Positions 1 through 7,657 of a DNA stretch of 64,000 nucleotides are shown here, piece after piece. The translations under genes and the position numbers were made by a program. Under the pieces are notes generated by a model. That model saw only the letters and a program-made list of their open reading frames with translations, did no database searches and was not told the origin of the DNA. Position 1 is the stretch's first letter; each line of letters opens with the position of its first letter. Source of the DNA: Candidatus Hydrogenedentota bacterium (GTDB taxonomy: Bacteria > Hydrogenedentota > Hydrogenedentia > Hydrogenedentales > Hydrogenedentaceae); contig JAOAHN010000072.1 in the NCBI GenBank assembly GCA_026415215.1, positions 2,899 to 66,898 of the forward strand. Reading direction: 5' to 3'.

Positions 1-1
1 A

Positions 2-88
2 TATTCAAAAAAGTTCTTAAAAAAACTTCAAGATCACATATCAAGTCTAATTCTCAAAGGATTAGATCTTTGGAGTGGTAATGTATGA
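2..88 (+). CDS. 3' end of an upstream gene, possibly a TetR/CerR-family regulator (partial)
   Basis: Frame 2 is open from the window edge (YSKKFLKKLQDHISSLILKGLDLWSGNV*). Its TGA overlaps the TolC ATG (ATGA at 85-88). The HI..LILKGL ending and position before an efflux operon resemble TetR-type C-termini. Confidence 0.35.
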   Translation, partial: YSKKFLKKLQDHISSLILKGLDLWSGNV

Positions 89-1539: not shown

Positions 1540-2730
1540 ATGAAATTTACTACTATAATGAATATCTACTTAATTCTAATCTTCATGCAAGTTTTTTGTT
1601 TTATCCAATTAGCTGGTTGTGATACTTCAAAAGCTCTTGCCCAGAAAGATAGTAAAGAAGAGGCTTTTCCTGTAAAAACTACCACCGTTTCGAAAAGAAC
1701 TTTCAAGAAGACCGTTCTCGTTCAAGGTAATATAGACACAAAAGAGCATGCTGTAGTATCGGCAAGGATTGACGGTGTTCTTACGGACTTATTTGTAGAT
1801 AAAGGTGACGAAGTTATTGCAAACCAAACACCTCTTTTCCAAGTGGACAAAGTTAAAGTAGAGCAGGCGCTTGGGATAGCGAAGCAAGACCTTGCAGTGG
1901 CTAAAGCGGGACTTAAACAGGCTGAGGCAAATCTTGCAAGTATGCAAGCCCAATTCGAAAAAGCAAAGGTAGATTATGAGAGGTTTCAAAGACTATATGA
2001 AAAGAAAGCAGTTTCGAAAGATGCTTTAGAATTGCAAGAGACAAGGTATAAGGCAACTAAAGCGGGATTAGAACATGCGGAGGCGTTGCTTCAACTTGCT
2101 CAGGAACAACTTAAGAAAGCAGAGTATGCGGTGAAAATAGCGGAGAAAACTTACTCAGACTCTTTGGTATATGCTCCAATATCGGGGAAGGTAAGTTATA
2201 AGTTTATAGAAAAGAATGAATTCGTTGGGGGAGGTAGACCTGTGCTAAAAATAGATAATCCTACAGTTCTCGAAGCATGTGCATTTCTCCCTGTTGAGGT
2301 TTACAGTTCAGTAGAGTTAAATAGAACTGTAGCAAAACTATATTTGTCTGGAAGAGAAATAGGAGATTTTCCTATTACATATAAGAGCCCAACAGTTTTG
2401 CCCACTCTGAGAACCTTCGAAGTAAAAGTGTTAATTACTAATCCTGTGCCTGAAATGATTCCAGGGACTATGATAGATGTTGAAGTAATTTTAGAAGAGA
2501 GGCAAAACTTAGGGGTTCCCAAGGAAAGCGTCGTCGCTACAACTACAGAGAAGTATGTTTTTAAGTCAGTAGATAATAAAGCTTTGAAAACTTTAATAGA
2601 AACAGGGTTTGAAACTGATGGCTGGGTTGAGGTTATTAGTGGAGAATTGAGGGAAGGTGATAAGGTGATTTCAATGGGACAAAATTTCATTAAGGATGGC
2701 CAAACTATACAGATTCTCTCAGAGGAGTAA
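1540..2730 (+). CDS. RND efflux periplasmic adaptor (membrane fusion protein)
   Basis: Lipoyl halves VSARIDG...VDKGDEV and VYAPISG flank a long alpha-hairpin; LAGC lipobox; C-terminal GELREGDKVI. Confidence 0.93.
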   Translation: MKFTTIMNIYLILIFMQVFCFIQLAGCDTSKALAQKDSKEEAFPVKTTTVSKRTFKKTVLVQGNIDTKEHAVVSARIDGVLTDLFVDKGDEVIANQTPLFQVDKVKVEQALGIAKQDLAVAKAGLKQAEANLASMQAQFEKAKVDYERFQRLYEKKAVSKDALELQETRYKATKAGLEHAEALLQLAQEQLKKAEYAVKIAEKTYSDSLVYAPISGKVSYKFIEKNEFVGGGRPVLKIDNPTVLEACAFLPVEVYSSVELNRTVAKLYLSGREIGDFPITYKSPTVLPTLRTFEVKVLITNPVPEMIPGTMIDVEVILEERQNLGVPKESVVATTTEKYVFKSVDNKALKTLIETGFETDGWVEVISGELREGDKVISMGQNFIKDGQTIQILSEE

Positions 2731-2736
2731 TTGATA

Positions 2737-5700
2737 ATGAGCCTTCCAGAATTATCGGTTCGAAGACCTGTAGCAATGTCCTGTCTTTTCATAGGATTGA
2801 CATTTTTAGGGATAGATGCCTATTTTCGGATGGGATTGGAGTTTTTTCCCAAGGTAGATGTTCCCTATGTTACCGTAGTTACTGTTTATCCGGGAGCAGG
2901 TCCAGAAGAGATAGAATCCGATATAGCAAGAAAGATTGAAGATGCGGTGGTTACCATAGACGGACTGAAACATGTTACTTCTACCTGTATGGAGAATGTA
3001 TGCCAAACACTGCTTGAATTTAATTTAAATGTTGATGTCGATGTTGCTGCATACGATGTCAGAGAGAAACTTGACTTAATTACTAACGAATTTCCCGAAG
3101 GCACAGAAAAACCAAAGGTTTTGAAGTTTGACATTAATGCGGTCCCGATTATAGATCTTGCCTTGACAGGAAATCTACCTGTAGAAGAAATTTATGATTA
3201 TGCCGACAACGAACTCAAGGATAAACTCACCACGATAGAGGGTGTGGCGAGTGTAGAACTAATTGGGGGCAATAAAAGGGAGGTGCATGTTTTATTAGAC
3301 AGAAAAAAACTTTCCGCGAGGGGATTAACCTCCTTAGACATAGTTGAGGCTATTCAAAAAGGAGTAAAGTTAATTCCTTCAGGAAGAGTAAAAGAGACTA
3401 AAACAGAGTATTCTGTCAAGTTCGATGCTGAGTATTCTCAGCTTGAAGCACTTGAATCACTGCCTTTGAAAGCTAAAGACGGGTCTCGATGTTATCTAAA
3501 GGATGTGGGGAAAATAGTGTTCTCATCCAAAGAACTTCGGCAAACTGCTTATATCGACACAAAACCTTGTGTGAACATAAGGGTGGTTAAGAAAGCAGAG
3601 GCAAATGCCTTAAGAGTCGTGAACGCAGTAAAATTGGCCGTGGAAAATATAAGGAAAACATTACCTGCGGAGTTAGACTTAATATGGGTTAATGACGACG
3701 GTTTGTTCATTCAATCTACAGTCGATAGCACAATATCAAATATATTCCAAGGAATTATCTTAACCGCCATAATCTTGTTTTTCTTCTTGTATAACTTCAG
3801 ATTAACTTTTATAGTAGGAATTACAATGCCCTTAACAATAATAATAGGGCTCTTTTTTATCAAATTGCTTGGATATACCCTTAATGTTAGTACTTTAATA
3901 TCACTTGGGCTTTCTGTAGGAATTCTTGTAACTAACTCCATAGTTGTTCTCGAAAGTATAATGTCAGAATTCGCCACAAGTAGAGACGCTAAAAATGCTG
4001 CTATCAATGGTGCAAACAAGGTTTTTATTGCTGTTCTCGCAAGCGCTGGCACTAATCTTGTAGTGCTTTTTCCCGTAGCTACTATGGGTTCCCAAGTCGG
4101 CTTATTTATGGCACCATTTGCTTGGACAATGATAATCGTTACAGCTGTGTCCTTATTCATTTCGTTTACTTTGACACCTCTTCTTGCCTCCATATTGTTA
4201 AAACCATCTAAAGAGGTTGGTTTTTTAGTTACTCTCGCTAATGCATTTGATACAGTGTTAGATAAAATTAAAAACGCCTATGAAAATATACTTAGGATTT
4301 TTGAGCAGAGGAAAACATTGGCGGTTATCTTCACAATTGTAGTAATAGGCATGTTTATCCATGCTTTTTTTCTGATACCTAAAGTTGGATTTGGTTTTTT
4401 TGAAGAACCTGATCGAGGTACTGTGATAGTAAGATTGGAGTACCCTACGAATTATAACTTAAACACTACCATTGAAAGAGTGAAAGAAGTAGAGAGTAAA
4501 TTAAGAGATTTACCGTATTTAAAACACATCTTATCTACGGTAGGCAAGGTTCAAGGAATCATAGGTCAAAGTTCAGAGGGAGTTTACCTCGCCCAAATAT
4601 TATTGGTGTTTGATGAGAAGACTAAAAGACCTGAATATTCTATTCATAGAATTAAGGACCTCGTTAGAGAAAGACTGAGAAAACATTTAGATTGTCAAAT
4701 TAGGGTAGGAACGCCAACTGCGGTTGGAGGCATGAGTGTTCCGATTGAATTAGAAATTTCTGGAGAAGATAGAGAAGAAATAAGAAAAATTACCACTACT
4801 ATTAAGGAACATGCTCACGAAGTGCCAGGGTTATTAGATGTTGATACAAGCATAAGGATAGGTAGACCCGAGATTAGAGTGTTGCCTAATAAACCTCTCC
4901 TAACTGACCTTAATATTCCACCCATAGTTGTTGGGATGCTTATGAGAGGAAATTTAGAAGGGATAACGGCGGGTGTGTTCAAGAAGAGTGGAAGGAGCTA
5001 CGATATAGTAGTGAAAATGGAAGAAGAATTGGGTAAAGAACAGGTAGAAAGTTTTCTACTTCCTGGCGCTCCAGGAATGCCAATTACGCTATCCTCCGTT
5101 GCAAAAATAGAAGAGAGCAAAGCCCCCGTGGCACTTTATAGAAAGAATAAGAAAAGGATAGAAAAGTTATTTGCAACTCTTGTCCCCGGAAAGCCTCTCG
5201 GAACAGCAGTAGATGAGCTTACTCAAATCATTCGAAAATATGTGGAACTTCCGCCCGGCTATGATTTTTACTACTTCGGTGAATACGAGGTGATGGTAGA
5301 AGCCCAAGTAGAGTTCGCGAGGGCAGGTATCATCGCCATTGTTTTGGTGATACTTACTTTGTCTGCCATCCTTGAGTCATTTAAACAACCTTTCTTTATA
5401 CTCGTAACTCTTCCACTTGGACTAATAGGGGTTATATGGGCACTGTATCTTACAGGTTATTCTCTTTCAATGTTCGTATTGCTTGGCTTGGTGATGTTAT
5501 CAGGAATAGTTGTTAACAATGCCATATTGATTATTGACAGACTGAATCAACTCGTTGCTTCCGGAGTACAGAGACATAAAGCAATGATTCAGTCAGCAAA
5601 GGAACAATTTAGACCAATACTTATGATTACTCTCGCAGCCATTGCAGGAATGCTTCCACTTGCTTTGGGTAGAGGTATAGGTAGTGAAATTAGAACTGAC

Positions 5701-5820
5701 TTAGGATTTGCAAGCATTGGGGGAATAGCAATAAGTGGACTTCTCACACTTGTAGTTATACCCATATTGTATGACTTATTCACAAGAGGCAAAATTGAAA
5801 AAAACCAGGATAATAAATAA
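2737..5820 (+). CDS. RND (AcrB/AcrD/AcrF family) transporter with non-canonical transmembrane relay residues
   Basis: SVRRPV start, YPGAGPEEIE, SFTLTPLL, FRPILM, about 1030 aa with 12-TM layout. GAGGAG SD at 2722-2727 favours ATG 2737. Confidence 0.95.
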   Translation: MSLPELSVRRPVAMSCLFIGLTFLGIDAYFRMGLEFFPKVDVPYVTVVTVYPGAGPEEIESDIARKIEDAVVTIDGLKHVTSTCMENVCQTLLEFNLNVDVDVAAYDVREKLDLITNEFPEGTEKPKVLKFDINAVPIIDLALTGNLPVEEIYDYADNELKDKLTTIEGVASVELIGGNKREVHVLLDRKKLSARGLTSLDIVEAIQKGVKLIPSGRVKETKTEYSVKFDAEYSQLEALESLPLKAKDGSRCYLKDVGKIVFSSKELRQTAYIDTKPCVNIRVVKKAEANALRVVNAVKLAVENIRKTLPAELDLIWVNDDGLFIQSTVDSTISNIFQGIILTAIILFFFLYNFRLTFIVGITMPLTIIIGLFFIKLLGYTLNVSTLISLGLSVGILVTNSIVVLESIMSEFATSRDAKNAAINGANKVFIAVLASAGTNLVVLFPVATMGSQVGLFMAPFAWTMIIVTAVSLFISFTLTPLLASILLKPSKEVGFLVTLANAFDTVLDKIKNAYENILRIFEQRKTLAVIFTIVVIGMFIHAFFLIPKVGFGFFEEPDRGTVIVRLEYPTNYNLNTTIERVKEVESKLRDLPYLKHILSTVGKVQGIIGQSSEGVYLAQILLVFDEKTKRPEYSIHRIKDLVRERLRKHLDCQIRVGTPTAVGGMSVPIELEISGEDREEIRKITTTIKEHAHEVPGLLDVDTSIRIGRPEIRVLPNKPLLTDLNIPPIVVGMLMRGNLEGITAGVFKKSGRSYDIVVKMEEELGKEQVESFLLPGAPGMPITLSSVAKIEESKAPVALYRKNKKRIEKLFATLVPGKPLGTAVDELTQIIRKYVELPPGYDFYYFGEYEVMVEAQVEFARAGIIAIVLVILTLSAILESFKQPFFILVTLPLGLIGVIWALYLTGYSLSMFVLLGLVMLSGIVVNNAILIIDRLNQLVASGVQRHKAMIQSAKEQFRPILMITLAAIAGMLPLALGRGIGSEIRTDLGFASIGGIAISGLLTLVVIPILYDLFTRGKIEKNQDNK

Positions 5821-7657
5821 TAGTGGTGCACTGTTCCGTAAAGTTAAACTTCTTCACAATATACTTTTTTTGGGGTATGCTTTATTCTCATTAAGTACTA
5901 ATTTTAATTCGTGGGGCGCCTCCGAGTTTCCGTCTTCTTGTTTTGGTAACATTTACAAGTGGAAGTCCTCCTCTAATGATTTGGTTATAACACCTTGTTT
6001 AGATTCGCAGGGGAAAACCTATTTCAAGATTAAACCCAAAGATGAATACTTAAATAAATGGAATCTCTTTTTTCTTCAAATTCCCCTGTCTCCGAATGAA
6101 ATTAAAGTGCTCAAATTGAGTATTCAAGTTAAGGCATATATGAGAATTTTAAAAATTAAAGATTCTATTGGTGCTGGTGTCTCTATTCATTTCCTAAATG
6201 CTCAAAATGAGAGAATTGAAACTATCGAAGAAAGACTTACGGAGCCAACAGAATTTTTCGTTCCTATTACCCTCTATTCCCAAATAACTCCAAATACTTC
6301 TACTTTGAGAATAGCTATATTTCTTCACCAAAGTGTCGAAGTAGAGGTATACGAACCACAAGTCTCTATCTTTCAAACTGAAGACAAAAATAGAGAAGTT
6401 TTAATAGAAGAACTTCCAAATAGAAAATACAAACTCATTGGTTTTGGAGTAGAAGACGATGGAAGATTTTATGATTCTCAAAATAGACAGTTAGGAGTAG
6501 ACAAAAAAGGAGAATTATTGCGGGTAAATAGGCTAAATCATTTAACCCCTCATTGGGTTAGAACATTTGTCTGGTTTAAGGAATGGTCTCCCAATGAGGA
6601 TGGAGAAACTTTTACATGGAATAGCGACGGTATATTAAGCTTATGCAAAACTCTTGAATATTACCAGAGCAACAAAATTCCAGTGAATCTTACCTGTGTT
6701 ACATGGGGTATGGAAAATCCTTGGGACAACCCAGAGGTTAGAATCAAAGAAATCATTGCCTTGCTCAAATATCTTAAAAAGGAAAAAAGGTTTACCTGTA
6801 TAAAATATTTTACTCTGACGAATGAACCCAACTATTTCTTTAATTCCAATAATAGATTTGAGAAATTTGTTGATTACCACTGTAAGCTTAGCATGGAGTT
6901 CAAGAAGAATAAATTAGATATAGAGTTAATAGGAAGTGATGACGCAATGGGAACCGATTGGTTCTGTAAGTGTCTATCAAGAAAGTCTTATCGCTCCTGT
7001 GTTGAACTATGGGCTTCTCACTTTTATTGGAATTACACTGTTGTTCCATACGCTAATCATCTATTTGAAGAAAGGATTAACCTTTTAAGGAAGCACTATA
7101 GGAATAGCCAACCATCATTCATTGTTACCGAATTCGGAATTACCGACTCGAGATTCCGGCCTCCATTTAATAATCCACTTATGCAAGAATTTGATGGTGC
7201 CCTATATACTGTATCAACCATAATAGATGGATTAAATGCCGGGGTAACCGGATTTAATATCTGGTGTCTTCAGGAAGTCGCTTATCCTGGAGGGAAGGAC
7301 GCTATTATGCGCATAGGTCTTTGGGGATATGCTGATAAAAATTGGCAGATATTCCCCGTTTACCATGCCCTGGCTATGTTTACAAGAAACACAAAGCCTG
7401 GAGATATGATAAATCCCCTTCATTCTTCTTCTCCAGAGTTGTTTAAATCTGTAAAGATTGGGGCAAATACCTTTTTCGCTAATATTGGAACCAAAGAGTT
7501 AATCCTAATACTTTCGAAATCTCGAGAGTATAAATTAGTATGGGTCTACGAAAGCTATCCTAATAATCTATATAAGTTAAAGAAGAAAAAAGTTGAGATT
7601 TCTAACGAAAAATCAATCCTTGTTCCTCCCCGAAGCTTCGGATATCTATCAGAGTGA
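5771..7657 (+). CDS. Secreted clan GH-A glycoside hydrolase (GH30/GH39/GH5-like) with N-terminal beta-sandwich/CBM-like domain
   Basis: Acid/base TNEP and nucleophile IVTEFG motifs; signal-like hydrophobic stretch. True start is uncertain (possibly CTG at 5831). Confidence 0.7.
   Translation: MTYSQEAKLKKTRIINNSGALFRKVKLLHNILFLGYALFSLSTNFNSWGASEFPSSCFGNIYKWKSSSNDLVITPCLDSQGKTYFKIKPKDEYLNKWNLFFLQIPLSPNEIKVLKLSIQVKAYMRILKIKDSIGAGVSIHFLNAQNERIETIEERLTEPTEFFVPITLYSQITPNTSTLRIAIFLHQSVEVEVYEPQVSIFQTEDKNREVLIEELPNRKYKLIGFGVEDDGRFYDSQNRQLGVDKKGELLRVNRLNHLTPHWVRTFVWFKEWSPNEDGETFTWNSDGILSLCKTLEYYQSNKIPVNLTCVTWGMENPWDNPEVRIKEIIALLKYLKKEKRFTCIKYFTLTNEPNYFFNSNNRFEKFVDYHCKLSMEFKKNKLDIELIGSDDAMGTDWFCKCLSRKSYRSCVELWASHFYWNYTVVPYANHLFEERINLLRKHYRNSQPSFIVTEFGITDSRFRPPFNNPLMQEFDGALYTVSTIIDGLNAGVTGFNIWCLQEVAYPGGKDAIMRIGLWGYADKNWQIFPVYHALAMFTRNTKPGDMINPLHSSSPELFKSVKIGANTFFANIGTKELILILSKSREYKLVWVYESYPNNLYKLKKKKVEISNEKSILVPPRSFGYLSE

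Follow-up and report, generated by a model that had tools for sequence, protein, structure and literature searches.

A clade of AcrB-fold RND permeases without the proton-relay aspartates, and a conserved Asn/Thr cluster as a candidate sodium site

How might an RND permease be powered when all five residues of the AcrB proton relay are missing from it? The question is raised by an operon at the beginning of the window, the 64,000-nucleotide stretch of Hydrogenedentota DNA analyzed here, the host of which is probably Candidatus Hydrogenedens. Its genes are arranged in the order tetR-omf-mfp-rnd:

1 to 88, forward strand: 3′-end of tetR (TetR family, TetR_N + CecR_C), the start of which lies upstream of the window on contig C116
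85 to 1521, forward strand: outer membrane factor (OMF) of the TolC family, 478 aa (PF02321, E 3e-43; TIGR01844, E 3.8e-24, under the cut-off)
1540 to 2730, forward strand: RND periplasmic adaptor (MFP), 396 aa (TIGR01730, 137.9 bits, cut-off 94.9)
2737 to 5820, forward strand: RND permease of AcrB fold, 1027 aa (PF00873, 705.8 bits)

The tetR stop and the OMF start overlap in the sequence ATGA, and the permease ORF, with an in-frame TTG at 2731, contains no internal stops. The initial annotation had described a full-length, frameshift-free gene with its own TolC and MFP and no second RND subunit nearby; this is borne out, since the OMF and MFP are both real by profile and tblastn found no other RND gene in the window. 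The permease matches PF00873 (AcrB/AcrD/AcrF) over residues 5–1015 (cut-off 28), and misses the NCBIfam subfamily cut-offs, the best score being 623.7 for NF033617 (1250 needed), with 414.4 for TIGR00915 (940.35 needed). Its AF2 model (pLDDT 79.9; residues 36–134 of low confidence) contains 12 transmembrane helices and two periplasmic domains, and compares with AcrD/AcrB at a TM-score of approximately 0.80 (Foldseek E 3e-55). Annotation pipelines label such genes as ordinary HAE1 efflux permeases, and the operon is likely to encode a working tripartite exporter; among 20 phylum loci of the clade described below, an MFP gene is present at all 20 and an OMF gene at 12. Any promoter or operator signal upstream of tetR was no better than chance, and no conserved signaling or energizing neighbor was found around the clade loci. 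An Atlas search returned generic RND clusters only, and no description of the clade was found in the open-access papers searched. Contigs from one public hot-spring DNA run carry identical TM4 and TM10 codons and unchanged TM11 motif residues, with no indels; this run is possibly the source sample, and the agreement is thus not independent.

Alignment with E. coli K-12 AcrB places T399, N400, N927, Q957, and I964 of the permease opposite D407, D408, K940, R971, and T978, respectively, which confirms the five substitutions and their codons as first annotated (Q957, 5605–5607; I964, 5626–5628). Four AcrB residues are kept, E414 as E406, N941 as N928, E947 as D934, and R973 as R959, and AcrB V448/L449 are replaced by the polar pair T439/N440. 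In the available excerpt of PMC8749003, AcrB L449 and I445 are described as lining the relay cavity. A helix listing reveals neither acidic nor basic residues in the mid-membrane portions of TM4, TM5, TM10, and TM11. None of the AcrB Phe pocket residues (F136, F178, F610, F615, F617, and F628) has a Phe opposite it, in a porter alignment which is unsure at approximately 21% identity. The relevant membrane positions, with their conservation among Asp-less homologs, are as follows:

3931 to 3936, forward strand: T399 N400 in TM4 (AcrB D407, D408); N400 near-invariant across the clade, T399 variable
3952 to 3954, forward strand: E406 at the cytoplasmic end of TM4 (AcrB E414), acid kept; E in 90/91 Asp-less rows
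4042 to 4056, forward strand: S436-A-G-T439-N440 in TM5 (AcrB I445 to L449); clade signature T439/N440, predicted cation ligand pair
5515 to 5520, forward strand: N927 N928 in TM10 (AcrB K940, N941); N in 89/91 and 85/91 Asp-less rows
5536 to 5538, forward strand: D934 at the cytoplasmic end of TM10 (AcrB E947), acid kept; D/E in 89/91 Asp-less rows
5605 to 5640, forward strand: TM11 Q957 (R971), R959 (R973, kept), I964 (T978), and A967/A968; positions partnering D407, relaxed or lost in the clade

Both aspartates are missing in 121/121 rows made up of the query and 120 homologs of 56–90% identity, and 87 of 88 Asp-less proteins fall into one clade spread over 11 named phyla. Six of six same-genus orthologs exhibit a pS of approximately 0.8 (saturated) and a pN of 0.17–0.21 overall, falling to 0.07–0.10 in the four core helices. 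Judged from these sequences the permease is a member of a real subfamily under purifying selection, as the initial annotation had proposed checking. Decay or assembly error was excluded by the homologs, by a pN far below pS, by the occurrence of the motif in 58/135 phylum genomes, and by the public-run contigs; a decayed or mis-assembled gene is accordingly an extremely improbable explanation.

Conservation was compared between 91 Asp-less rows (median pairwise identity 36%) and 168 Asp-bearing rows. In the former, few columns anywhere in the protein are as conserved as T439 (0.99) and N400, N440, and N927 (0.98 each). Position 439 is T in 90/91, and position 440 is N in 89/91 versus 10/168 Asp-bearing rows. 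Position 399 is mixed (T54/S11/A11/N11/M2/V1). The R971 position reads K39/R33/Q9/E7/T2/A1 and the T978 position T27/I24/A21/S15/V3/M1, where Asp-bearing rows possess R in 167/168 and T in 166/168; given this mixture, both positions appear to have been released rather than fixed. No compensating acid has been gained at any mid-membrane column, so that the buried carboxylate for which the initial annotation proposed a check was not found at the level of sequence; mid-membrane acids are absent in 84/91 rows and sporadic in seven, and bases are absent in 91/91.

The concerted TN/NN/Q/I pattern of the initial annotation does not hold: besides the relaxation at Q957 and I964, Asn at 408 and 940 occurs together with an intact D407 in 83/168 Asp-bearing rows, including two paralogs in the host genome. 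Because D408N/K940N are common in relatives that retain D407, loss of the relay was stepwise. These DN-type permeases (D407 only, with TM5 S-T-x-T-T; e.g., the pair on host contig C34) share N408 and N940 with the clade, but unlike it keep D407, R971, T978, and a TM11 Thr pair, and they are not its direct sister on the trees; no solved structure of the type was among the PDB matches listed. A 102-row tree requires a single change for the loss of Asp. A 255-row tree requires four, with two D407 rows within the clade and one protein (P0237) representing a separate loss, and a strict single origin was rejected on this basis. Direct descent from the DN/STLTT group was also rejected, as wider sampling gives other nearest kin, namely DD+Asp440, DN+Asn440, and DS+His440 proteins at a node without resolution; position 440 in the nearest sister groups is thus Asp, Asn, or His.

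We tentatively favor, at rather less than an even chance, the reading that the permease may be a Na+-coupled exporter. T439/N440 (TM5) and N927 (TM10), aided by N400, S436, and main-chain carbonyls, would coordinate a single Na+ between the transmembrane repeats in the manner of site I of Dispatched. In favor of this reading stand the conservation of the neutral polar cluster, the location of position 440 at the relay cavity, the DISP1 comparison, the sodium machinery of the host and its co-occurrence with the motif across the phylum, the VexEF precedent, and the stand-alone operon. The ion would enter from the periplasm and exit past E406/D934, its passage driving the movement of repeat against repeat that protonation performs in AcrB, so that the porter domain cycles; the substrate, going by family, may be an amphiphile sensed by TetR. 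An ion site at TN/NN had been proposed initially: N400 and N927 stand as near-invariant, but T399 is less fit because it is variable in the clade, and the site is better placed, on conservation, at T439/N440 with N927 and N400.

The model for this site is DISP1, in which, according to the available excerpt of bioRxiv 2020.09.05.284026, the Na+ ligands are D1049 and T613/T614 (site I), D571 and T1087/T1088 (site II), and D572 and T610/S611 (site III). As described there, DISP1 tolerates single D to N changes, whereas the form with all three aspartates replaced by Asn lacks Na+ density and is inactive, and the prokaryotic RNDs which its authors aligned are stated to be without these ligands. The spacing of the DISP1 TM5 ligands fits 436/437/439/440 of the permease in a putative register picked after the conservation had been seen. 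Under this putative register, all three mapped positions of site I are oxygen donors in 90/91 Asp-less, 81/83 DN-type, and 3/62 DD-type rows; the corresponding counts for site II are 6/91, 80/83, and 6/62. No DISP1 or PTCH1 rows were among the matches listed in PDB sequence searches. Comparisons with fragment models gave an rmsd of 4–5 Å with chain jumps, and in the comparison with PTCH1 (Z 7.0, rmsd 4.8) the end of TM5 fell one turn from its expected place. By range offset, PTCH1 E1095 occupies a T399/N927-type position. PTCH1 may also possess Asn at the position equivalent to T614, to which the reading gives no weight. By analogy, that each DISP1 site holds a carboxylate and the clade none counts against Na+ coupling. 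A tripartite precedent is VexEF, reportedly Na+-dependent in the excerpt of PMC8875612.

The host encodes NqrA-F (Na+-NQR). Its ATPase rings are of Na+ type: the V-type K ring displays the ligand pattern T/Q/Y, Q, and E and its F-type c ring E, E-S, and Y, the Na+ ligand pattern being taken from PMC2359735; OadB was not found in this genome (93.6% complete). Across well-assembled genomes of the phylum, NqrA is present in 46/47 with the motif versus 36/47 without it, kinship not being accounted for. Motif-bearing Planctomycetota (4/201 genomes, one of them the seed) possess NqrB/RnfD in 4/4 cases against 92/201 overall, too few to count. Among 15 host genomes of other lineages, NqrB/RnfD is missing from four, the c rings of which carry no Na+ ligands; OadB is missing as well from two of these four.

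This absence of a Na+ pump marker in some hosts is consistent with an uncoupled pump, in which the trimer would cycle thermally or upon substrate binding, a periplasmic or outer-leaflet compound would pass downhill via the OMF, and the Asn/Thr cluster would just join the repeats. The chargeless core of the clade, the loss of Na+ from triple-Asn DISP1, and the excerpt of PMC8427324, where MmpL7 is described as transporting without a relay, point the same way. We nonetheless consider it unlikely: invariance of buried Asn/Thr at approximately 36% identity would seem to exceed the usual needs of packing, and ungated cycling is not the default since AcrB relay mutants lose export entirely (PMC8277102). 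Proton-type c rings in four host genomes would suit a pump which is still proton-driven, with water or hydronium held by Asn/Thr handing protons to E406 and D934, both of which are near-invariant in the clade. However, the two acids are just as conserved in ordinary RNDs (E in 163/168 and D/E in 152/168 Asp-bearing rows), where they give D407/D408 mutants no rescue (PMC8277102), and R971 and T978 have been released, making this reading quite unlikely.

Energy might instead be supplied by an Asp-bearing RND encoded elsewhere, the permease being the passive subunit of a mixed trimer. Candidate partners exist in all 135 phylum genomes and in 10/10 other host genomes examined; the host itself has RND genes on contigs C34 (the tandem pair), C35, C32, and C52, with D407 kept in all three whose TM4 is readable. 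The arrangement of the genes speaks against such a trimer, since the operon has its own MFP and a co-operonic second RND occurs at 0/20 phylum loci and 0/26 other Asp-less loci (one of the latter has a canonical pump upstream in a separate operon), compared with two RND genes at 25/51 Asp-bearing loci. The partner types differ as well, genome G146 encoding only DD-type and G148 only DN-type permeases, in assemblies which are perhaps incomplete. We regard a mixed trimer as distinctly improbable. In NSS transporters a carboxylate is replaced by Cl-, and the small, neutral residues (T/S/A/N) nearly always found at position 399 might likewise accommodate an anion; alternatively, the protein might be an importer, sensor, or scaffold. 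Another coupling or a role outside export is improbable too: the operon is built like any other TetR-controlled efflux operon, no conserved signaling or energizing neighbor was found, and the import or signaling role first suggested drew no positive evidence.

What is new, on the alignments, is the near-invariant set T439/N440, N927, and N400 and its mapping, by a putative register, onto Dispatched Na+ site I. If true, use of Na+ via a neutral polar cluster would be a new way to power RND pumps. With its AcrB fold and no acids, a large clade under selection offers a natural experiment on how the porter domain is driven from the membrane: it implies that an ion can be coupled at a neutral site or, failing that, that the machine is able to work uncoupled. 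The TM5/TM11 pattern would let Na+ coupling be told from H+ coupling by sequence, a rule checkable with few point mutants. The broader proposal, that this multi-phylum tripartite family uses Na+ via a carboxylate-free Asn/Thr site and, with the much larger DN-type group, carries sites equivalent in bacteria to the sodium sites of Dispatched and Patched, is more doubtful. If it is true, Na+ coupling in bacterial RNDs would therefore be widespread and readable from TM5/TM11, not a Vibrio oddity, with a bearing on how Na+ use by Patched and Dispatched arose.

With the HAE-1 proton antiporters (E. coli AcrB, AcrD, and MdtF; P. aeruginosa MexB) the permease shares its fold and the MFP/OMF/TetR operon; from AcrB, approximately 21% identical, it differs in lacking D407, D408, K940, R971, and T978. 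Its best PDB sequence match is E. coli MdtB/MdtC (9LYQ; E 1.2e-94), a tandem pair which keeps DD/K/R/T, whereas the permease stands alone. The nearest named gene found among plasmid records, rhizobial NolG (Ensifer canadensis pT173b; approximately 31% BLAST identity), also keeps DD, K, R, and T, unlike the permease. In the HME group (CusA/CzcA), CusA D405/E939 lie opposite T399/N927, and the permease scored 336.6 with TIGR00914 against a cut-off of 701.45. Mycobacterial MmpL7 resembles it as a member of the RND superfamily in which the TM4/TM10 relay is missing (PMC8427324, excerpt), but belongs to the MmpL family, with Ala/Ala and Pro/Tyr at the site, in one lineage, and has no tripartite operon. 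V. cholerae VexF, a tripartite RND reported in the excerpt of PMC8875612 to be Na+-dependent, is likened by description and not by sequence. The Na+-using eukaryotic RNDs DISP1 and PTCH1 have, in the text available, hydroxyl and amide ligands on TM4, TM5, and TM10 with spacing like that of the permease under the putative register; both belong to another family, without MFP or OMF, and DISP1 holds a carboxylate at each site, where the permease is acid-free at T399, N400, and N927.

The RND permease is encoded by a stop-free reading frame of 1027 residues with a full-length match to PF00873, and it is preceded by OMF and MFP genes.

Beginning just outside the window, its end overlapping the OMF start: TetR gene, C-terminal domain of the CecR type
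85-1521: OMF gene
1540-2730: MFP gene
2737-5820, + strand: RND permease gene

Alignment with AcrB, MdtB, MdtC and CusA of E. coli (from the K-12 record) places T399, N400, N927, Q957 and I964 of the query at AcrB D407, D408, K940, R971 and T978, respectively. AcrB E414, N941, E947 and R973 are retained, and N440 corresponds to AcrB L449. The relay residues are the same in contigs of one hot-spring DNA run, which may be the source sample; the AF2 model supports the fold and helix limits only. Since most close homologues are labelled Candidatus Hydrogenedens (the closest is labelled WOR-3) and the downstream gene order is common to a Hydrogenedens locus, the host probably belongs to this genus. 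Directly 3′ of the pump lies a 628-residue reading frame (5771-7657, + strand), syntenic in locus L001 and lacking any Pfam or NCBIfam match; its Atlas neighbours, a lead only, are carbohydrate-binding and glycoside-hydrolase clusters.

The initial annotation had recognized that aspartates kept in close homologues would point to strain-specific decay. Across the query and its top 120 homologues (identity 56-90%), positions 407 and 408 are never Asp (0/121 rows), and 940 is Asn in 121/121. The degenerate TM4 pattern matches 58 of 135 phylum genomes, and the reversed pattern two. Compared with six same-genus orthologues, the gene has a saturated pS of approximately 0.8; its pN is 0.17-0.21 for the whole protein and drops to 0.07-0.10 within the four core helices. 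A wider set of 268 rows, skewed towards the query and towards the pattern used to find the named loci, combined 150 representatives (50% clustering), RND reading frames of >600 residues from 77 named loci and 12 close homologues (out of the 120), to which the query and three paralogues were added. All four core segments are present in 259 rows, 91 without a TM4 aspartate (Asp-less) and 168 with one. In a 102-row tree with the motif columns left out, all 27 Asp-less rows, spanning 11 NCBI-named phyla, fall on one branch (SH 100). In a 255-row tree, 87 of the 88 Asp-less rows group within an 89-member clade (SH 99), which includes two D407 proteins, with one separate Asp loss outside; in a 47-row IQ-TREE run the clade has an SH-aLRT of 85. 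The Asp-less permeases are a clade rather than a product of decay, and we give a decayed gene almost no credence.

Several variants were observed. One clade member (L011:1571-4745) is broken into two overlapping frames near 2540-2584; permeases P0123, P0124 and P0145 (Asp-less, about 1470 residues) are extended at the C-terminus by a long stretch that may be a fused OMF; and at L024:7041-10001 OMF and MFP are fused into one reading frame. A Cys pair on the PN1 hairpin (C84-C89; window 2986-3003), likely a periplasmic disulfide, is found in 116/120 close homologues, 29/91 clade rows and 0/168 Asp-bearing rows.

The T/N/N/Q/I replacement, initially annotated as a candidate clade-wide pattern under purifying selection, is true of the query; the clade and the selection (pN far below pS) hold, but Q957 and I964 are not clade-wide, the R971 and T978 positions varying. 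Arg occupies the former in 167/168 Asp-bearing versus 33/91 Asp-less rows, and Thr the latter in 166/168 versus 27/91. These partners of D407 were released once it was lost, which fits a loss of proton coupling. Because N408 and N940 are common beside an intact D407 (83 rows), also in several of the nearest relatives, which combine D407 with N408, N940 and N440, D407 was probably the last to be lost. No mid-membrane column of the 91 Asp-less rows has gained an acid, 84 rows being acid-free, and a mid-membrane base is absent from all 91. E406 and D934, at cytoplasmic helix ends, are conserved as in ordinary pumps. T439, N440, N400 and N927 are each conserved at 0.98-0.99 in these rows, whose median pairwise identity is 36%. 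AcrB L449 lines the D407/D408/K940 cavity in an inhibitor complex, according to an excerpt of PMC8749003; position 440 is Asp, Asn or His in sister groups. One such group (P0160, P0165, P0168, P0173, P0186, P0187 and kin) possesses D407/D408, mostly K940, and a third Asp, which lies in TM5 where AcrB has L449, with an extra TM10 Asp upstream of the Lys in four rows of the group. Another rewired core, in P0131, P0150 and P0156, has T-D in TM4 and, in two, His at 440.

The Na+ sites described for DISP1 (Dispatched, a eukaryotic RND relative) in the part of bioRxiv 2020.09.05.284026 consulted comprise D1049 with T613/T614 (I), D571 with T1087/T1088 (II) and D572 with T610/S611 (III). Their TM5 spacing agrees with query positions 436, 437, 439 and 440, a register chosen after conservation was seen; the TM11 pair was set at 967/968 by internal symmetry. 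With this post hoc register, site I is complete in 90/91 Asp-less, 81/83 DN-type (D407 only, with N408) and 3/62 DD-type (both aspartates) rows, site II in 6/91, 80/83 and 6/62, and site III in 34/91, 60/83 and 30/62, respectively. So read, DN-type pumps therefore resemble DISP1 at sites I and II and DD-type pumps at neither, whereas the Asp-less clade retains site I only. In DN-type rows (e.g. loci L014, L057, L068; host contig C34) Thr is nearly invariant at 437, 439, 440, 964, 967 and 968, which is the DISP1 ligand pattern, and D407-only RNDs may constitute a large Na+-coupled group.

NqrA-F are encoded by the host, as are two rotor rings (c/K) bearing ligands of the Na+ type, the pattern being that excerpted from PMC2359735. 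Contigs C15, C42 and C139 of the host genome (G000) carry the complete nqr operon, the V/A-type ATPase to which the Na+-type K ring belongs, and the F-type c subunit, which is of the N-ATPase type. In the 94 phylum genomes with a completeness of 90% or more, NqrA occurs in 46/47 with the motif versus 36/47 without (Fisher p 0.004, kin not being independent; two weak matches scored negative and five unlisted negatives assigned by elimination); across all 135 the figures are 54/58 and 54/77. The single such motif-bearing genome without NqrA has OadB and a Na+-type ring. Eleven of the 15 hosts from other lineages have NqrB/RnfD; Rnf complexes are able to work with either Na+ or H+.

The anomaly of the Asp-less core is solid; its mechanism is a prediction. 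We tentatively favor a Na+-coupled exporter, at somewhat less than even odds, in which coupling would proceed through the carboxylate-free, site I-like core. Carboxylate-free Na+ sites are known in LeuT-fold carriers. The near-universal site I under that register and the Na+ bioenergetics of the host and its phylum argue for this; against it, triple-Asn DISP1 binds no Na+ and is inactive (same preprint, in part), the register was picked after the data were seen, a fragment fold comparison on PTCH1 (Z 7.0, rmsd 4.8) left the TM5 end one turn off its expected position, and the remaining 4/15 other-lineage hosts, two without OadB, have c rings without Na+ ligands. Uncoupled export is unlikely, residual proton coupling more so, and other roles follow. 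Slightly less probable still is an Asp-bearing RND partner in trans: such RNDs exist in every one of the 135 phylum genomes and in 10 further hosts, but the type available varies from host to host, and a second RND is absent from 20/20 phylum loci and, as a co-operonic gene, from 26/26 Asp-less loci among the named loci (at one of them, a distinct operon upstream encodes a canonical pump), versus two RND genes in 25/51 Asp-bearing loci. In the 20 phylum loci MFP is adjacent in 20 and OMF in 12, with a TetR match in 19, directly upstream in 18; no other neighbor recurs in the loci compared. The many clade operons without an adjacent OMF gene (L161, L162, L164, L165, L170, L172, L173, L005-L010) must borrow one or do without.

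The query is a PF00873 member but lacks the relay of AcrB/MexB-type antiporters, the tandem genes of MdtBC and the motif of CusA/CzcA, and falls under every NCBIfam cut-off. NolG, the nearest named gene found, keeps the full relay, unlike the query. No description of the Asp-less clade was found in the open-access literature; VexEF, reported to be Na+-dependent (review PMC8875612, in part), and MmpL7, an RND whose relay is missing (PMC8427324, in part), offer partial precedents.
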